Notes under the pieces: model-generated
Told to the model about the DNA's origin: nothing
What the model saw: the letters and a program-made list of their open reading frames with translations, nothing else
Databases searched by the model: none
NCBI RefSeq assembly: GCF_964213995.1
Contig: NC_135806.1
Coordinates: 139,438,001-139,502,000, forward strand
Direction of reading: 5' to 3'
Length of the DNA stretch: 64,000 bases
Source of the DNA: Mustelus asterias
Taxonomy: Eukaryota
Program-made: the position numbers and the translations under genes
Part shown: positions 47,397-56,168 of the stretch, piece after piece
Position numbering within the stretch: the first letter of the stretch is position 1
Layout of the letters: each line of letters starts with the position of its first letter

Positions 47397-49688
47397 CATA
47401 GAACCATAGAAAATTACAGCTCAGAAACAGGCCTTTTGGCCCTTCTTGTCTGTGCCGAACCATTTTTTGCCTAGCCCCACTGACCTGCACTTGGACCATA
47501 TCCCTCCACACCCCTCTCATCCATGAACCCGTCCAAGTTTTTCCTAAATGTTAAAAGTGACCCCGCATTTACCACTTTATCCGGCAGCTCATTCCACACT
47601 CCCACCACTCTCTGCGTGAAGCAGCCCCCCCTAATATTCCCTTTAAACTTTTCTCCTTTCACCCTTAACCCATGCCCTCTGGTTTTTTTTCTCCCCTAGC
47701 CTCAGCGGAAAAAGGCTGCTTGCATTCACTCTATCTATACCCATCAAAATCTTATACACCTCTATCAAATCTCCCCTCAATCTTCTACGCTCCAGGGAAT
47801 AAAGTCCCAACCTATTCAATCTCTCTCTGTAACTCAGCTTCTCAAGTCCCGGCAACATCCTTGTGAACCTTCTCTGCACTCTTTCAACCTTATTTACATC
47901 CTTCCTGTAACTAGGTGACCAAAACTGTACACAATACTCCAAATTCGGCCTCACCAATGCCTTATATAACCTTACCATAACACTCCAACTTTTATACTCG
48001 ATACTCCGATTTATAAAGGCCAAAGTACCAAAGGCACTCTTTACGACCCTATCCACCTGTGACGTCACTTTTAGGGAATTCTGTACCTGTATTCCCAGAT
48101 CCCTCTGTTCAACTGCACTCTTCAGAGTCCTACCATTTACCCTGTACGTTCTACTTTGGTTTGTCCTTCCAATGTGCAATATCTCACACTTGTCTGCGTT
48201 AAATTCCATTTGCCATTTTTCAGCCCATTTTTCTAGTTGGTCCAAATCCCTCTGCAAGCTTTGAAAACCTTCCTCACTGTCCACTACACCTCCAATCTTT
48301 GTATCATCAGCAAACTTGCTGATCCAATTTACCACATTATTATCCAGATCATTGATATAGATGACAAACAACAATGGACCCAACACCGATCCCTGCGGCA
48401 CACCACTAGTCACAGGCCTCCACTCAGAGAAGCAATCCTCCACAACCACTCTCTGGCTTCTTCCATTGATAGAGTAAGAAGTCTCACAACACCAGGTTAA
48501 AGTCCAACAGGTTTATTTGGTAGCAAATACCATAAGCTTTCGGAGCAATGCTCCTTCGTCTCCACATCAGTTCTTCCATTGAGCCAGTGTCTAATCCAAT
48601 TTACTACCTCCCCATGTATACCTAGCGACTGAACCTTCCTAACTAACCTCCCATGAGGGACCTTGTCAAAGGCTTGTCTCCACATCAGTTCTTCCATTGA
48701 GCCAGTGTCTAATCCAATTTACTACCTCCCCATGTATACCTAGCGACTGAACCTTCCTAACTAACCTCCCATGAGGGACCTTGTCAAAGGCTTTGCTGAA
48801 ATCCAGGTTGACAACATCCACCGCCTTCCCTTCATCCACTTTCCTGGTAACCGCCTCGAAAAACTCTAATAGATTTGTCAAACATGACCTACCACGCACA
48901 AAGCCATGTTGACTCTCCCTAATAAGTCCCTGTCTATCCAAATATTTGTAGATCCTATCCCTTATCACACCTTCCAATAACTTGCCCACCACCGACGTCA
49001 AACTTACTGGCCTATAATTTCCCGGATTTCTTTTGGAACCTTTTTTAAACAACGGAACAACATGAGCCACCCTCCAATCATCCGGCACCTCCCCCGTGAA
49101 TACTGACATTTTAAATCTGTCTGCCAGGGCCCCTGCAAGTTCAACGCTAGCTTCCCTCAAGGTCCGTGGGAATACCCTGTCCGGTCCTGGGGATTTATCC
49201 ACTCTGATTTGCCTCAAGACAGCGAGCACCTCCTCCCCTTTAATCTGTAAAGGTTCCATGACCTCCCTACCTGTTTGCCCTATTTCCGTAGACTCCATGC
49301 CCGTTTCCTCAGTAAATACGGATGCAAAAAAACCATTTGGTATCTCCCCCATCTCTTTTGGTTCCATACACAGTCTACCACTCTGGTCTTCAAGAGGACC
49401 AATTTTATCCCTCACTATCCTTTTGCTCCTAACATACCTATAGAAGCTCTTTGGATTTTCCTTCACTCTGTCTGCCAAGGCAACCTCATGTCTTCTTTTA
49501 GCCCTCCTGATTTCCCTCTTAAGTAGCTTCTTGCACTTTTTATACTCCTCGAGCATCTGATCCGTTCCTTGCTGCCTGTACATTTCATACAACTCTCTCT
49601 TCCTCTTAATCAGTGTTACAATCTCCCTCGAGAACCAAGGTTCCTTATTCCTATTTACTTTGCCTTTAATCCTGACAGGAACATACAA
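47397..49688 (-). mobile_element. Young CR1 LINE interrupted by a mini-Penelope insert and a 118-bp tandem duplication
   Basis: ORFs 48666-49691 and 47643-48449 encode contiguous RT parts. Confidence 0.9.
48470..48570 (-). mobile_element. Penelope pLTR insert of about 100 bp with a partial hammerhead and 12-bp TSD TTCTTCCATTGA
   Basis: TSD at 48458-48469 and 48571-48582; minus strand GACGA-AGGAGC-ATT-GCTCC-GAAA-GCTT; homologous to 32036-32130. Confidence 0.75.
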
Positions 49689-50192
49689 CATAGGCTCATT
49701 GAGACCTTGAGGCTTGCGTGTGTTTAAACATAGACACTTCTATTGGTAAGCTTTAACAATGTACAGTACCAGATATAGTCTTGAATGGAGCTGTTCCATT
49801 CCCGGGAACATTTCAGCAAGCTTGTTCTGGCACGTAATCTCAGTTTCTCTGAGTTGCTGATTCTGCTGTCAATTTCACTGTTTTTACCTCTTCCATTAAT
49901 TTCTCATTATCAAGCTTCCTTCTTCAAGCGCTTACTCTCCAGATTCAATTCTTCACTGGGCTTGTTATTTTCTAGTTGCTTTTTCATGGAATTCAGTTTA
50001 TTCTACATTGTCTCATTCATTTAACCTACTTCTTAAGTTTATTTTGTCAATTCTTGACACTTTTCTTGAAATCTTTAAGAAGAGAGAGAGAAAAGAAATT
50101 ACAGCACAGGAACAGGTCCTTCGGCCCTCCAAGCCTGCTCCCACCATGTTTTTTTAAACAAATTCTCACTTTGTAAACGCCCTTTCTATTAC

Positions 50193-50507
50193 TGTGGTGA
50201 ACCATCGTTGGTTACCACTGTGGGGTTATTCTAATGTTGTTGTTGGGCTAGGGTGTTGACACTGTGGGGTTGTTATAATGTTGTTGGGCTAGGGTGTTTA
50301 CACTGTGGGATTAATACACCTGTGGTGGTTGCTGTTGTGGCACATCCCAGTCGGGCCCCGCCTCCTGGGAGAGGTATAAGACCCTCTGCTCGGGCGGGAC
50401 CCCTCCAGTCTGGAATGGTGTACTCCTGTTTAAATAGTTCCATTGTTAGACAATAAAAGCCTTCAATTACAGAAGCCTTGTGTCTTGTGCTCGATTATCG
50501 TGCATCA
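50193..50507 (+). repeat. 5' LTR (315 bp)
   Basis: TGTGG...CATCA, TATA-like GGTATAAG at about 50373, AATAAA 50452-50457. Confidence 0.93.
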
Positions 50508-50548
50508 ATTTTATTGTCTAACACGAAACTCTCGACAGAAAGGAGAGT

Positions 50549-51634
50549 ATGGAACAAATGCTAAAGCCAGAGCGTCTGACGCTGGATCCACGTGCGGTCG
50601 GCGCCTCTAACACCCTCGACCACTGGCTGAAGTGTTTCGAGGACTACCTGGCAGCCTCTGCAGCGGTCACCACGGATAACGACAGACTCCAGGTCCTCCA
50701 TGCGAGGGTAAGCGACACTGTCTACCTCGCGATTCGTGCGGCCACCACTTACCCGAGAGCCCTCGAGCTTTTAAAAAAGCGCTACACGAGACCTCCCAAT
50801 GAGATCCACGCTCGTTACCTCCTCGCTACACGACGTCGGCAGTCGGGCGAAACCATGGAGCATTACGCCAATGAGCTCTTGCAGCTTGCCAGGGGCTGTG
50901 ACTGCAAAGCTGTGTCGGCTGAGCAGTATATGTATGACCTCACCCGAGATGCGTTTGTGGCAGGGGTAGGGTCCTCGTACATCCGTCCCAAGCTGCTAGA
51001 AAAGGGAAATCTCAACCTGACCCAAGCTATGGAGATGGCTGAAATGCTGGAGGCGGCGTCGAAGAGCTTGGCCCTGTATCCGGAGGACCACGTGGAGACA
51101 ACGTGGCAGGAGCAGTCACAAATCCCTCCTCGCCCCACGGGCTCGCGCTCCCATATCGACCCGACGGCGGCGGCAGCCCCAGGCGGCCCGCGGTGCTATT
51201 TCTGCGGAGGAGCCAAGCATCCACGGCAAAAGTGTCCTGCTAAAGCGGTGGTCTGTAATCAATGCGGTAAAAAGGGGCACTACGCGAAAGTCTGCAGATC
51301 GAAGCCCAAGAACGGCAGTGCAGCCTGTGACCCTCCAGAACGGAGATCATCTCCATCGGCGTCGCAGTACCCACGAGGTCCGTCCACGTGCGAGCCCAGG
51401 ATGACGCCATTGTGGTTGGCGGAGTCGGAGGAGGTGACCACCAGGAGTCGCTACGCTTGGCGCCCTCAACCATGTGCGATTCATGGGGGCGGCCATTTTG
51501 GTCGACGACGACCAGGAGCGACCAGCAGGGGTCCTCAGTATCGACCTCAGCTGCCTGCAGTGACGTCCAAGGGCCAACGGTGGCGTCGATCACCCTGGAC
51601 CAGGCTAAGCACCACAGGCTTGACTGTTCAATGA
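50549..51634 (+). CDS. gag: Gypsy Gag with two CCHC zinc knuckles
   Basis: CYFCGGAKHPRQKC and CNQCGKKGHYAKVC. Confidence 0.88.
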   Translation: MEQMLKPERLTLDPRAVGASNTLDHWLKCFEDYLAASAAVTTDNDRLQVLHARVSDTVYLAIRAATTYPRALELLKKRYTRPPNEIHARYLLATRRRQSGETMEHYANELLQLARGCDCKAVSAEQYMYDLTRDAFVAGVGSSYIRPKLLEKGNLNLTQAMEMAEMLEAASKSLALYPEDHVETTWQEQSQIPPRPTGSRSHIDPTAAAAPGGPRCYFCGGAKHPRQKCPAKAVVCNQCGKKGHYAKVCRSKPKNGSAACDPPERRSSPSASQYPRGPSTCEPRMTPLWLAESEEVTTRSRYAWRPQPCAIHGGGHFGRRRPGATSRGPQYRPQLPAVTSKGQRWRRSPWTRLSTTGLTVQ

Positions 51635-54525
51635 TGAACATTAAGGTAAATGATCGTACTGTTTATTGTCTGTTTGACAGCGGGAGCACTGAGAGCTTCA
51701 TTCACCCTGACACTGTAAAGAGGTGTGGACTCCAGGTTCTACCTGCCAAACAGACAATTTCTATGGCATCACGGTCCCGGTCTGTACCGATCCAAGGACG
51801 TTGTGTGGTAACTCTGAAAGTGCAGGGCACAATTTACGAGCGATACAGGCTCCTTGTGTTGCCGCATCTTTGCGCGCCAATTCTCCTCGGACTAAACTTT
51901 ATGGTCCACATGAAGAGTGTGATCCTACAGTACGGTGGGCCACTCCCTTCGCTGACAGTAGGGGACCAGCCGCAGCCTCCAAATTGTCCAAAGCGCCCCG
52001 CATGCAATCTTTCCACACTAAAGATCACCACGCCCTCTTTATTTAAGAATCTGGTACCAGGCTGCAAGCCCATCGCTACTAAAAGTAGGCGTTACAGCGC
52101 TGAAGATCGGATCTTCATCAGATCTGAGGTTCAGCGGCTCCTCAAAGAAGGGATCATACAGCCCAGCGTTAGTCCGTGGAGAGCACAGGTCGTGGTGGTT
52201 AAGAGCGGGAACAAACCCCGGATGGTCATTGACTACAGTCAGACCATTAATCGATATACGCAACTGGATGCGTATCCTCTCCCGCGCATATCTGATATGG
52301 TCAATCAGATTGCGCAGTACCGGGTGTTCTCCACCATAGACCTTAAGTCCACCTACCACCAACTCCCCATCCGCCCAGAGGACCGACATTACACGGCTTT
52401 TGAGGCGGATGGTCGTCTGTATCAGTTTCTTAGGTTTCCATTTGGTGTCACCAATGGGGTCTCGGTCTTCCAGCGTGCTATGGACCGAATGGTGGACCAG
52501 AACGGGCTGCGGGCTACCTTCCCGTACCTGGATAATGTCACCATCTGCGGCCATGATCAGCAGGACCATGACACAAATCTCCAGAACTTTTTGCGCACTG
52601 CATCTTGCCTGAATCTGACCTACAACAGGGAGAAGTGTGTATTCCGTACGCGCCGGTTAGCCATCCTGGGATACGTAGTGGAAGACGGGGTCATTGGCCC
52701 TGATCCCGACCGTATACGCCCCCTTGCTGAACTTCCTTTGCCCGCTAGCGCAAAAGCACTGAGGAGATGCCTAGGCTTCTTCTCCTATTATGCGCAGTGG
52801 GTCCCCAACTACGCGGACAAAGCCCGTCCGCTTCTTAAGTCCACGACTTTTCCACTCACGCCAGAGGCCCAATTGGCCTTCAAGGCATTGAAAAGCGACA
52901 TTGCGAAAGCCACGATGCACGCGGTGGATGAATCCATCCCTTTTCAGGTGGAAAGTGATGCATCTGATTTCGCCCTGGCCGCCACACTAAACCAGGCAGG
53001 CAGGCCCGTCGCGTTTTTTTCCCGCACCCTTCAAGGTCCCGAAATTCGGCATTCAGCGGTGGAAAAGGAGGCTCAGGCTATTGTGGAGGCCGTCAGACAC
53101 TGGCGCCATTACCTGGCGGGGAAGCGGTTCACCCTGATCACGGACCAGCGGTCCGTGGCGTTCATGTTTAATAATACGCAGAGGGGCAAGATCAAGAATG
53201 ACAAGATCTTGCGGTGGAGAATTGAGCTCTCCACCTATAATTACGATATTATGTATTGTCCAGGGAAACTCAATGAGCCCTCGGATGCCCTCTCGCGCGG
53301 AACATGCGCTACTATGCAGGAGGATCGCTTGAACGCCCTCCATAATGACCTGTGCCATCCTGGGGTCACTCGGCTCTACCACTTCATCAAAGCCCGCAAT
53401 CTGCCCTACTCGGTGGAGGATGTCAGGTCAGTGACAAGGAGCTGTCGGATTTGCGCGGAATGCAAACCGCACTTTTACCGACCTGACCGGGCACATTTGG
53501 TCAAGGCCACTCGCCCCTTCGAGAGGCTGAGTGTGGATTTTAAGGGCCCCCTTCCCTCAACAGACCGGAACGTGTACTTTCTTAACATCATAGACGAGTA
53601 CTCCCGGTTCCCGTTTGTTGTCCCCTGTGCGGACACGTCGACTGCCACGGTGATCAAGGCATTCCGTGATCTTTTTACCCTGTTCGGGTACCCCAGCTAT
53701 ATACATAGCGACAGGGGCTCGTCGTTCATGAGTAACGACTTGAGGCAATTCCTGCTCTCATACGGGATTGCCTCTAGTAGAACCACGAGTTACAACCCTA
53801 GGGGCAATGGACAGGTGGAGAGAGAGAATGCTACAGTCTGGAAGGCTGTCCTATTGGCGCTGAAGTCCAAAGGCCTTCCAGTCTCCCATTGGCAGGAGGT
53901 CCTCCCAAATGCGCTTCACTCCATTCGCTCCCTCCTGTGTACGGCAACCAATGCTACTCCCCACGAGAGGATGTTCTCATTCCCTCGGAAGTCGTCCTCG
54001 GGGATATCTTTACCAGCCTGGTTGACGTACCCAGGACCCGTCCTTCTGCGGCGACATGTAAGGGCCCGCAAGTCCGACCCCTTGGTCGAACCGGTCCACC
54101 TCCTCCACGCCAACCCTCAGTATGCCTATGTGGCATATCCTGACAGGCGAGAGGACACAGTCTCGATCCGAGACCTGGCGCCCGCAGGGGACGTAGCAAC
54201 TCCTGTCGCTCCCATACCCCCAGTCACGAATCCCCTATCTCTTATTTCTCCCCCGGACGTGGCGCGGTCAGCACCGGGACCAGTGCATAACAGTTATACT
54301 CCACTGTACAGCTTGCCTGAGACTCGGAGATCGGCGCCATCGCAGAAGGTACTGGGATCCCCTGCACTACCGCTTCATCAGGGTCAACCGGCCCGTGAGT
54401 CCTCGAGGGGACAGCCGGACGCTGTTTTGGAGAGAACGCCACCGCAAGCACCTGCTCCGGTGTCACAGCCGGTATTGAGGAGGTCACAACGACGGTGCGG
54501 TCCTCCAGACCGTCTGGACTTGTAG
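51388..54525 (+). CDS. pol: Gypsy Pol: protease, RT, RNase H, integrase
   Basis: LFDSGS; IDLKS...YLDN; SDASD/EKE/TDQ/DALSR; H-H-C-C and VDFKGP/SDRG/VERE DDE triad. Confidence 0.92.
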   Translation: MRAQDDAIVVGGVGGGDHQESLRLAPSTMCDSWGRPFWSTTTRSDQQGSSVSTSAACSDVQGPTVASITLDQAKHHRLDCSMMNIKVNDRTVYCLFDSGSTESFIHPDTVKRCGLQVLPAKQTISMASRSRSVPIQGRCVVTLKVQGTIYERYRLLVLPHLCAPILLGLNFMVHMKSVILQYGGPLPSLTVGDQPQPPNCPKRPACNLSTLKITTPSLFKNLVPGCKPIATKSRRYSAEDRIFIRSEVQRLLKEGIIQPSVSPWRAQVVVVKSGNKPRMVIDYSQTINRYTQLDAYPLPRISDMVNQIAQYRVFSTIDLKSTYHQLPIRPEDRHYTAFEADGRLYQFLRFPFGVTNGVSVFQRAMDRMVDQNGLRATFPYLDNVTICGHDQQDHDTNLQNFLRTASCLNLTYNREKCVFRTRRLAILGYVVEDGVIGPDPDRIRPLAELPLPASAKALRRCLGFFSYYAQWVPNYADKARPLLKSTTFPLTPEAQLAFKALKSDIAKATMHAVDESIPFQVESDASDFALAATLNQAGRPVAFFSRTLQGPEIRHSAVEKEAQAIVEAVRHWRHYLAGKRFTLITDQRSVAFMFNNTQRGKIKNDKILRWRIELSTYNYDIMYCPGKLNEPSDALSRGTCATMQEDRLNALHNDLCHPGVTRLYHFIKARNLPYSVEDVRSVTRSCRICAECKPHFYRPDRAHLVKATRPFERLSVDFKGPLPSTDRNVYFLNIIDEYSRFPFVVPCADTSTATVIKAFRDLFTLFGYPSYIHSDRGSSFMSNDLRQFLLSYGIASSRTTSYNPRGNGQVERENATVWKAVLLALKSKGLPVSHWQEVLPNALHSIRSLLCTATNATPHERMFSFPRKSSSGISLPAWLTYPGPVLLRRHVRARKSDPLVEPVHLLHANPQYAYVAYPDRREDTVSIRDLAPAGDVATPVAPIPPVTNPLSLISPPDVARSAPGPVHNSYTPLYSLPETRRSAPSQKVLGSPALPLHQGQPARESSRGQPDAVLERTPPQAPAPVSQPVLRRSQRRCGPPDRLDL

Positions 54526-54599
54526 ATTGTTGATTTTTAAAATATATATATAGTCTGTTTTCGCACCCCGCCGGCCTTTGTTCTCAAAGGAGGGGTGAA

Positions 54600-54961
54600 T
54601 GTGGTGAACCATCGTTGGTTACCACTGTGGGGTTATTCCAATGTTGCTGTTGGGCTAGGGTGTTGACACTGTGGGGTTGTTATAATGTTGTTGTTGGGCT
54701 AGGGTGTTGACACTGTGGGGTTGTTATAATGTTGTTGTTGGGCTAGGGTGTTTACACTGTGGGATTAATACACCTGTGGTGGATGCTGTTGTGGCACATC
54801 CCGGTCGGGCCCCGCCTCCTGGGAGAGGTATAAGACCCTCTGCTCGGGCGGGACCCCTCCAGTCTGGAATGGTGTACTCGTGTTTAAATAGTTCCATTGT
54901 TAGACAATAAAAGCCTTCAATTACAGAAGCCTGGTGTCTTGTGCTCGATTGTCGTGCATCA
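54600..54961 (+). repeat. 3' LTR (362 bp; one extra U3 tandem unit of about 44 bp)
   Basis: About 7 substitutions versus the 5' LTR (counted by eye) plus the extra repeat unit. Confidence 0.93.
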
Positions 54962-55539
54962 ATTACACATCTTTATAACAAAGACTTTTTTTTCACTTTT
55001 GGCTAGTTTTTTTTCCTTGTAATTTAGTTGATCCTTGCTTATCAATCATTTTGTCCTTATTTGAGTTTCCTGATATTGGGGGAATTTTACCATTTTGAGT
55101 CTAAGTGCCGAATCCGGGCGTCAAATAGATCCGCGCCTGGAATCCTCTTTCCAGCGCGCCCATACGTGTTTTGCCGGCTCCGGCCCGATCCGCCCTGTGG
55201 GCGGGGCTTAGCGCTGGCGGACTGATCGGAGCTCTGAACTGCGCATGTGCGCCCGGGCGTTAAAGAAAGAAAAAGCAGAAAGCGGAGAGAGCGGCTCTCT
55301 GACGTTCATCCTCTGGTTGGGGGGCGGGGGGGGGGAGGTGCGGGGGGGCGGGGGGGGGGAGGTGCGGGGGGGCGGGGGGGGAGGTGCGGAGGAGGAGGGG
55401 GTGTGTCGTCTCATCCTCTGGGAGGGGGGGGTGGTGGGAAGAGAGGTACACTACCAGCCACAGATTACTCTTCCCTGCAGGGGCAAGAGAGCAGAAGTGA
55501 TGGCTGTGGCTGGTAGTGTACCAGTGATGGTGTGTCCCT

Positions 55540-55694
55540 TTACAGGCCCAGCTTGGTCCTTCTCCAGTGTCTCCTCTTGGACTTGTACTGATCTTGTAAC
55601 CGGTTTTCATGCGGATCAACTGTGGAATCGGCCGGTTCTGCTTCACCTTCTTAGCGAGGAATCTCTTCATCCTGAAGGTTTTGTGGGATGGGAT
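55540..55694 (-). pseudogene. RPL39: Processed pseudogene of 60S ribosomal protein L39
   Basis: [32 protein letters not shown], then after a 1-nt frameshift [15 protein letters not shown]-stop; intronless; ATG changed to ATC. Confidence 0.92.
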
Positions 55695-55782
55695 GGCCGC
55701 ACATCCACTCCGGGAGGAGGGATCGGCCGCAGAGTGGCAGTGGACCCCCCCCCCCCCCCCCCGACCAGAGGATGATTGGTCA

Positions 55783-56168
55783 CATAGAACATAGAACATA
55801 GAACAGTACAGCACAGAACAGGCCCTTCGGCCCACGATGTTGTGCCGAGCTTTATCTGAAACCAAGATCAAGCTATCCCACTCCCTATCATCCTGGTGTG
55901 CTCCATGTGCCTATCCAATAACCGCTTAAATGTTTCTAAAGTGTCTGACTCCACTATCACTGCAGGCAGTCCATTCCACACCCCAACCACTCACTGCGTA
56001 AAGAACCTACCTCTGATATCCGTCCTGTATCTCCCACCACGAACCCTATAGTTATGCCCCCTTGTAATAGCTCCATCCACCCGAGGAAATAGTCTTTGGA
56101 CGTTCACTCTATCTATCCCCTTCATCATTTTATACACCTCTATTAAGTCTCCCCTCAGCCTCCTCCGC
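55783..56168 (-). mobile_element. CR1 3' end, nearly identical to CR1-B (about 8025-8393)
   Basis: [37 protein letters not shown]; (ttctatg)n tail. Confidence 0.88.

Follow-up and report, generated by a model that had tools for sequence, protein, structure and literature searches.

Fold-back pairing at the 5′ LTR junction of a Mustelus asterias Ty3/gypsy element points to probable tRNA-independent self-priming in an animal lineage without a chromodomain

Introduction

Self-priming of reverse transcription is usually regarded as characteristic of Ty3/gypsy elements of the Tf1/sushi group, and to our knowledge it has been demonstrated for Tf1 only. Members of this group, including Tf1 and Tf2 of Schizosaccharomyces pombe and Tj1, have no tRNA primer-binding site (PBS) and carry instead a PBS complementary to their own 5′ LTR, an arrangement that recurs in the element described here. 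The self-priming mechanism of Tf1 is set out in the accessible portions of PMC7175516, PMC4600332 and PMC5341516.

Related arrangements have been described elsewhere. In the available portion of PMC6317226, self-priming is predicted for the plant lineages Tcn1 (Gypsy) and TAR (Copia) from a complementary stretch, 10 bp or longer, that begins 0–5 bp after the 5′ LTR, and self-priming had therefore already been inferred outside the Tf1/sushi group. The pairing reported here resembles those predictions in kind, whereas the lineages and hosts are different, and for Tcn1 and TAR the same portion of that paper presents neither covariation nor integrated fold-back products. Retroviruses keep a TGG-type tRNA PBS, whereas the lineage described here pairs the PBS itself, and its poly(A) hexamer is not always in the stem. 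The retroviral U5-IR stem is mentioned, and hairpin priming is discussed, in the accessible text of PMC3601003.

Among animal Gypsy elements the named clades include Mag A/B/C, Cigr-1, CsRN1, MolGy, PolGy and Tor. Animal Gypsy clades have been surveyed in PMC6238403 and PMC8556966, which in their accessible parts do so without discussion of primers. Our search of openly accessible papers brought up work on Tf1/sushi, plant and fungal elements and clade surveys, and none of it described self-priming in animal Gypsy elements outside the chromoviruses. Repbase entries reportedly describe “self-primed” animal Gypsy families, and these may be prior art.

Results and Discussion

A complete element with fold-back pairing at its 5′ LTR junction

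The window, by which we mean the whole 64,000-nucleotide stretch of Mustelus asterias DNA that was analyzed, contains a complete Ty3/gypsy element, recognized by its TG...CA LTRs, target-site duplication (TSD), polypurine tract (PPT) and pol domain order PR-RT-RH-IN. All features of the element lie on the plus strand. The 5′ LTR (TGTGG...CATCA, 50193..50507, from LTR comparison) is preceded by the left TSD, ATTAC (50188..50192), and the identical 5-mer forms the right TSD (54962..54966). Between the LTRs are gag (50549..51634), with two CCHC-type knuckles, and the pol frame (51331..54525), which encodes protease, RT (YLDN at 52525), RNase H and integrase, without a chromodomain. A PPT (54586..54599) leads into the 3′ LTR (54600..54961). 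The gag and pol frames are separate in the window copy, and most relatives have a single long gag-pol frame. The best solved relative is Ty3 Gag-Pol (E 1e-66), and inspection of the pol sequence finds the RNase H acidic residues present. The 5′ and 3′ LTRs show 310 matches and 5 mismatches over 315 aligned bases outside a tandem-unit indel; the element is young. The tandem unit, of ~44 bp, lies in U3 (50216..50310; 54623..54760), and the 3′ LTR contains one more unit than the 5′ LTR.

Arm 1 of the fold-back, TGTTAGACAATAAAA (50444..50458), is the predicted self-primer and contains AATAAA (50452..50457). Arm 2, TTTTATTGTCTAACA (50509..50523), is the putative PBS and contains no TGG. An earlier note on this DNA had described the two segments as exact 15-bp reverse complements, and both the positions and the sequence are right: 15/15 bases are complementary, 50 nt apart. 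The loop between the arms (50459..50508) consists of the rest of R/U5, the LTR-end CA and one unpaired A, and two small hairpins are predicted inside it. The LTR end, CATCA at 50507, is fixed by the second LTR and by the ATTAC TSD on both sides, and it follows that a single unpaired A (50508) separates the LTR from arm 2. The chance of a 15-mer complement anywhere in the window's LTR is ~1e-7.

The predicted RNA fold of the 5′ LTR junction is far more stable than that of shuffled sequences (z = −5.1; 0/200 shuffles equally stable), whereas the 3′ LTR with its flank folds no better than shuffles (z = −0.2). The hairpin had been proposed to form at the 5′ LTR only. This stands for the local hairpin but not for pairing in general: arm 1 is also found in the 3′ LTR, at 54898..54912, so the PBS may also pair at long range or between molecules, and the 5′-specificity applies to the local hairpin only. 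Inspection of the bases next to the 5′ LTR of the window's element found no TGG-type PBS. Across the sampled junctions of the same genome, 3/100 have a TGG no more than 30 nt from the LTR end. In a set of 40 anchored rows, which includes a row without the fold-back, TGG stands next to the LTR in 1.

Covariation within the shark genome

Among the 30 copies closest to the window's element, both arms are unchanged in 28, and one arm-1 change is found in 2. To reach beyond these copies we used a sequence pattern whose anchors flank each arm, with 8 bases per arm left free, which matches 2058 junctions in the shark's own genome. Pairing was scored in the first 100 listed. Of these, 96 pair perfectly over 15 bp, as eight different arm pairs; when the PBSs were shuffled among the 100 copies (10000 shuffles), the number of perfect pairs averaged 15.5 and never exceeded 30. 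Four of the eight free pairs vary, always on both sides. The two-sided swaps include G-C to C-G and A-U to U-A or C-G, and a swap such as G-C to C-G has no G-U intermediate; G-U occupies 1/400 variable cells. The pairing also ends sharply, with the next base pairing in 1/100 junctions. Since the subfamilies are related, the 100 copies represent about eight independent observations. Watson-Crick swaps on both sides and hardly any G-U are what re-copying of the PBS from the LTR arm would produce.

More distant shark families were found with gag pieces of two relatives. This set comprises 60 loci, 2 of which were entered twice; 59/60 could be anchored, and 58 have at least 12/14 Watson-Crick pairs, with further arm sequences. 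The earlier note had named covariation among family members as one check on its proposal, and loss of the complementarity in related elements as one outcome that would count against it. What is seen is two-sided change within the family and pairing that is kept across the shark families and, as described below, in most metagenome regions.

Several copies carry changes on one side only. The arm-1 variant TGCTC, taken from read data, was predicted to have a converted PBS. This prediction failed: a search of the genome found the variant in 13 places with an unconverted PBS, and no instance of the converted form. The matching arm is present in the 3′ LTR of 5/5 loci checked, which represent 4 insertions, and for this reason these variants look like later single-LTR mutations. 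One further copy, L297, has an identical change in both LTRs and an unconverted PBS, which is the intermediate expected under re-copying; no converted sister copy was found in the shark's own genome. A single chimeric 5′ LTR (L294), with its TSD intact, is broken between position 8 of arm 1 and position 7 of the loop, at the border at which strong-stop DNA would terminate. Just 3′ of arm 2 there is a suggestive hot spot of non-templated addition, which is inseparable from subfamily structure.

Fold-back pairing in other animals

The named relatives of the element are found in rays, catsharks, a nematode, corals, a tunicate and a damselfly. A further 90 loci from metagenomes and metagenome-assembled genomes (MAGs) were screened, 39 of which include a gag start and sufficient upstream DNA. 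At least 10/11 Watson-Crick pairs, in the register CA+1 and with the partner 24–68 nt upstream, are found in 35 of these 39 regions, a level reached by 14/8000 in the shuffled null; the fold-back is absent from two of the 39, L056 and L088. Where a locus has two LTRs, the second LTR confirms the CA as the LTR end. Comparison of L032 with L040 reveals a two-sided arm change inside one family, and in three decayed copies (L042, L043 and L087) the match is still visible.

For comparisons among families, 26 representatives were hand-picked from the stem-bearing loci, leaving out near-duplicates, decayed copies and stemless loci. The first 11 pairs of these 26 comprise 285 Watson-Crick pairs, no G-U and 1 mismatch. 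The predicted stems internal to the loop, found in 21 of the same 26, contain G-U in 31/206 pairs (15%). This contrast between arms and loop stems fits copying better than selection on the RNA stem. An RCCT-like word lies 3′ of arm 1 in most families, and some families, but not all, have a hairpin starting directly 3′ of arm 1 (mean stem 4.0, against 3.0 after shuffling).

No relative was found among the viral contigs searched. Contigs of this animal retrotransposon clade are also present in several prokaryotic genome bins (L111–L117, L119 and L120), and these are most likely eukaryotic contamination.

Proposed mechanism

These comparisons, all of them of DNA, make it likely, in our view, that arm 1 of the element's own RNA would prime reverse transcription in place of a tRNA. 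In the DNA, arm 1 is complementary to arm 2, and arm 2 lies one base 3′ of the LTR CA in nearly every family. The transcript is predicted to fold so that arm 1 sits on the PBS. By analogy with Tf1, cleavage, probably by the RNase H of the element, would then give arm 1 a free 3′ end, from which minus-strand synthesis would start at the unpaired A. Plus-strand strong-stop DNA would copy the primer and in doing so rewrite the PBS from arm 1, a step that the run-through copies described below support. Rewriting of this kind would keep the arms matched while their middle drifts. The conserved NNTAAA at the primer end would be kept because the same bases would act as a poly(A) signal in the 3′ LTR, and hiding that signal at the 5′ end could be a side benefit. 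The 5′ end of the primer would either be the first base of arm 1, as in Tf1, or be trimmed from a transcript starting ~37 nt upstream.

Predicted transcription start

Conservation points to two promoter motifs upstream of arm 1 in the window's element: a putative TATA box (TATAAGA, 50375..50381), 69 nt upstream of the arm, and a predicted initiator (YCAGT, 50404..50410) whose A at 50407 is a candidate start 37 nt upstream of it. Within the window's group, TATAA lies 67–69 nt upstream of arm 1 in 38/38 junctions and YCAGT 36–37 nt upstream in 37/38. In the larger own-genome sample, CAGTC is found 35–37 nt upstream in 99/100 junctions. In the other shark families a TATA motif is present in 55/60 loci, and YCAGT follows it by 31–35 nt in 48/60; the arm is mostly 36–40 nt downstream of YCAGT, and ~60 nt downstream in one family.

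The shark TATA and initiator predict a start at 50407, and the primer may accordingly be internal rather than the RNA 5′ end. The Tf1 primer is the first 11 nt, whereas the predicted start of the shark families lies 35–60 nt upstream of the primer. A start ~37 nt upstream misfits the Tf1 geometry and would require an additional cut, another start or some stop signal. None of the 12 run-through copies described below ends near −37. A weaker initiator-like word is found at the arm start in 10/26 families (background 2–5). According to the accessible part of PMC5341516, Tf2 alternates between transcription start sites, of which a single one supports reverse transcription, and on this precedent a second start is possible in the shark element as well.

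One shark family (L140, L144) has a 12–13 bp inverted repeat with one half in U3 and the other in R immediately upstream of arm 1, and the window's family has a weaker counterpart (50340..50350 with 50410..50420). This structure could form only at the RNA 3′ end, beside the poly(A) signal.

The poly(A) signal within arm 1

The 5′ poly(A) hairpin of HIV-1 is the retroviral model for a stem that masks a poly(A) signal, and the chief role of the fold-back could likewise be to conceal the 5′ signal so that transcripts do not terminate too early, with priming by other means. Consistent with this, AATAAA or ATTAAA lies within arm 1 in 18 of the 26 family representatives and the arm ends in TAAA(A) in 25, the local hairpin forms at the 5′ end only, and a start at 50407 would put the poly(A) signal inside the transcript. 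However, the hexamer is absent from the arm in the remaining 8/26, and poly(A) masking therefore cannot be the general purpose of the pairing. In two loci (L035 and L036) the hexamer is found in the unpaired loop instead, and in L060 the arm ends in GAAGA yet pairs over 15 bp. Moreover, masking requires neither a fixed register to the LTR end nor the exclusion of G-U, and it leaves the element without a primer site, TGG being so rare near the LTR end. Masking as the main role of the stem is, in our judgment, very unlikely.

The usual NNTAAA arm end suggests that, in the 3′ LTR, arm 1 may also act as the poly(A) signal. An additional masking role alongside priming is conceivable, if on balance doubtful, and it may be real in sharks. 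The earlier note had offered self-priming and masking as possibly joint functions of one structure. Its tRNA-independent self-priming finds good support in the covariation, the fixed register and the run-through copies, while masking, given the families without an arm hexamer, is reduced to a second use at best.

Run-through copies

In one sampled copy (L257) the PBS continues as a mirror of the LTR upstream of arm 1, and a genome search found 12 copies in which the PBS continues into mirrored LTR sequence. Three of the 12 extend 7–8 nt and then jump at a microhomology; the other nine pass through U3 to the LTR start or beyond. Their TSDs are perfect over 5 bp in 9/12, and match at 4/5 positions in one, while two copies could not be followed to both of their ends. 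The perfect TSDs imply that the run-through copies were made before integration, integrase having inserted finished reverse transcripts with the plus strand ending in arm 2. Such copies would place the plus-strand strong-stop end (that is, the functional PBS), or a template-switch site, in arm 2. They do not by themselves identify the primer, as a 15-bp inverted repeat of any kind might fold back when it lies at a DNA end. Because arm 2 always tracks arm 1, the primer is most likely arm 1.

In the shark's own genome, L335–L337 and L339–L344 are hairpin-shaped LTR insertions, ~250–600 bp long or longer, that end in TG...CA and are flanked by 5-bp TSDs. From their structure, integrase appears to accept aberrant fold-back cDNA. 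In L341 and L342 the palindromic U5 end serves as the second terminus.

The longest run-through copies bear on which arm 1 is used. In L335 and L339 the run-through goes past U3 and takes in the PPT as well as internal sequence. The two halves of L343, mirrored and forward, come from different LTR variants. Such products would be expected if the primer were arm 1 of the 3′ LTR, through circularization of the genome, or arm 1 of a co-packaged second RNA. Priming would be tRNA-independent still, and the problem of the upstream start would be removed. Long products are rare, however (9, against 2058 normal junctions), and are equally explained by plus-strand strong-stop DNA annealing to another plus strand; in addition, with a genome-long primer, copying to a 15-nt PBS would need a further cut. 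We regard a primer from the 3′ LTR or a second RNA as highly improbable.

The idea that arm 2 binds a host RNA, such as an internal tRNA fragment or other small RNA, with the LTR match incidental or a packaging or dimerization stem, has a precedent in the half-tRNA primers of Copia lineages (in the accessible part of PMC6317226), but it is very unlikely here, since the PBS core takes at least 8 sequences in one own-genome group, and a far larger number across families, and in every case follows the LTR, so that no single host RNA could fit arm 2, and since no Rfam family reaches threshold across the fold-back region. Taken as sequence evidence, the absent TGG and the LTR-tracking PBS argue against priming by a tRNA or half-tRNA. 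Self-priming from arm 1 is the reading that we carry forward.

Relationship to Tf1 and other Ty3/gypsy elements

The phylogenetic position of the element was examined in an RT-RH tree of 108 rows (FastTree), in which algal, plant and metagenomic chromoviruses served as stand-ins, with no Tf1 or sushi row. The window's element, its relatives and all 20 fold-back loci used form a clade of 46 rows, on a long branch with SH-like support of 100. This clade is separate from the 14 chromodomain-bearing rows and the 47 other Gypsy rows. A search for the Chromo domain gave no match at E 0.01 in the window pol and none among 120 relatives. The RT motif YLDN (52525..52536) is found in the window copy and in 9/9 full copies checked, and YxDN stands in place of YxDD in 92 of the 120 closest relatives, in a young, abundant family. 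A literature search on the YxDN RT motif found no paper.

Like the Tf1/sushi group, the window's lineage has extra small stems in R/U5 and the Ty3/gypsy domain order. Unlike that group, it is without a chromodomain, falls in a separate RT-RH clade and mostly has YxDN, and its primer, 11–18 nt long, overlaps the poly(A) signal through a terminal TAAA. On the features tested, the lineage would work like Tf1 and is no member of the Tf1/sushi group. The label “Tf1-type” given in the earlier note thus fits the self-priming logic of the element but not its descent, as judged from the missing chromodomain and the separate RT-RH clade, nor perhaps its primer position, with the predicted start lying upstream.

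A broader proposal, which we make tentatively and hold to be possible rather than probable, is that this is a second, independently evolved form of Ty3/gypsy self-priming that extends from corals, tunicates and insects to sharks. It would combine an internal primer cut out of R (~+37 to +51 in sharks) that is also the 3′ LTR poly(A) signal, a PBS rewritten in each cycle with a core that drifts freely, and a YxDN RT. If self-priming is true of this large non-chromovirus animal lineage, then it has had two or more origins in Gypsy or is an ancestral trait, and either outcome would bear on which came first, hairpin or tRNA priming. Self-primed elements would escape silencing by PBS-directed tRNA fragments, and PBS-based annotation tools would overlook them. 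An internal primer and an active YxDN polymerase, if true, would be new biochemistry, and these two possibilities are the points most worth testing. The thousands of young shark copies could allow primer drift, PBS rewriting and aborted intermediates to be read from DNA.

Sequence surrounding the element

Many short dispersed repeats surround the window's element. Fragments at 47643..49739 and elsewhere around it resemble ORF2 of a CR1-type LINE. Downstream of the element, within a minus-strand region at 55260..55910, the minus-strand text of 55700..55900 resembles a processed pseudogene of ribosomal protein L39.
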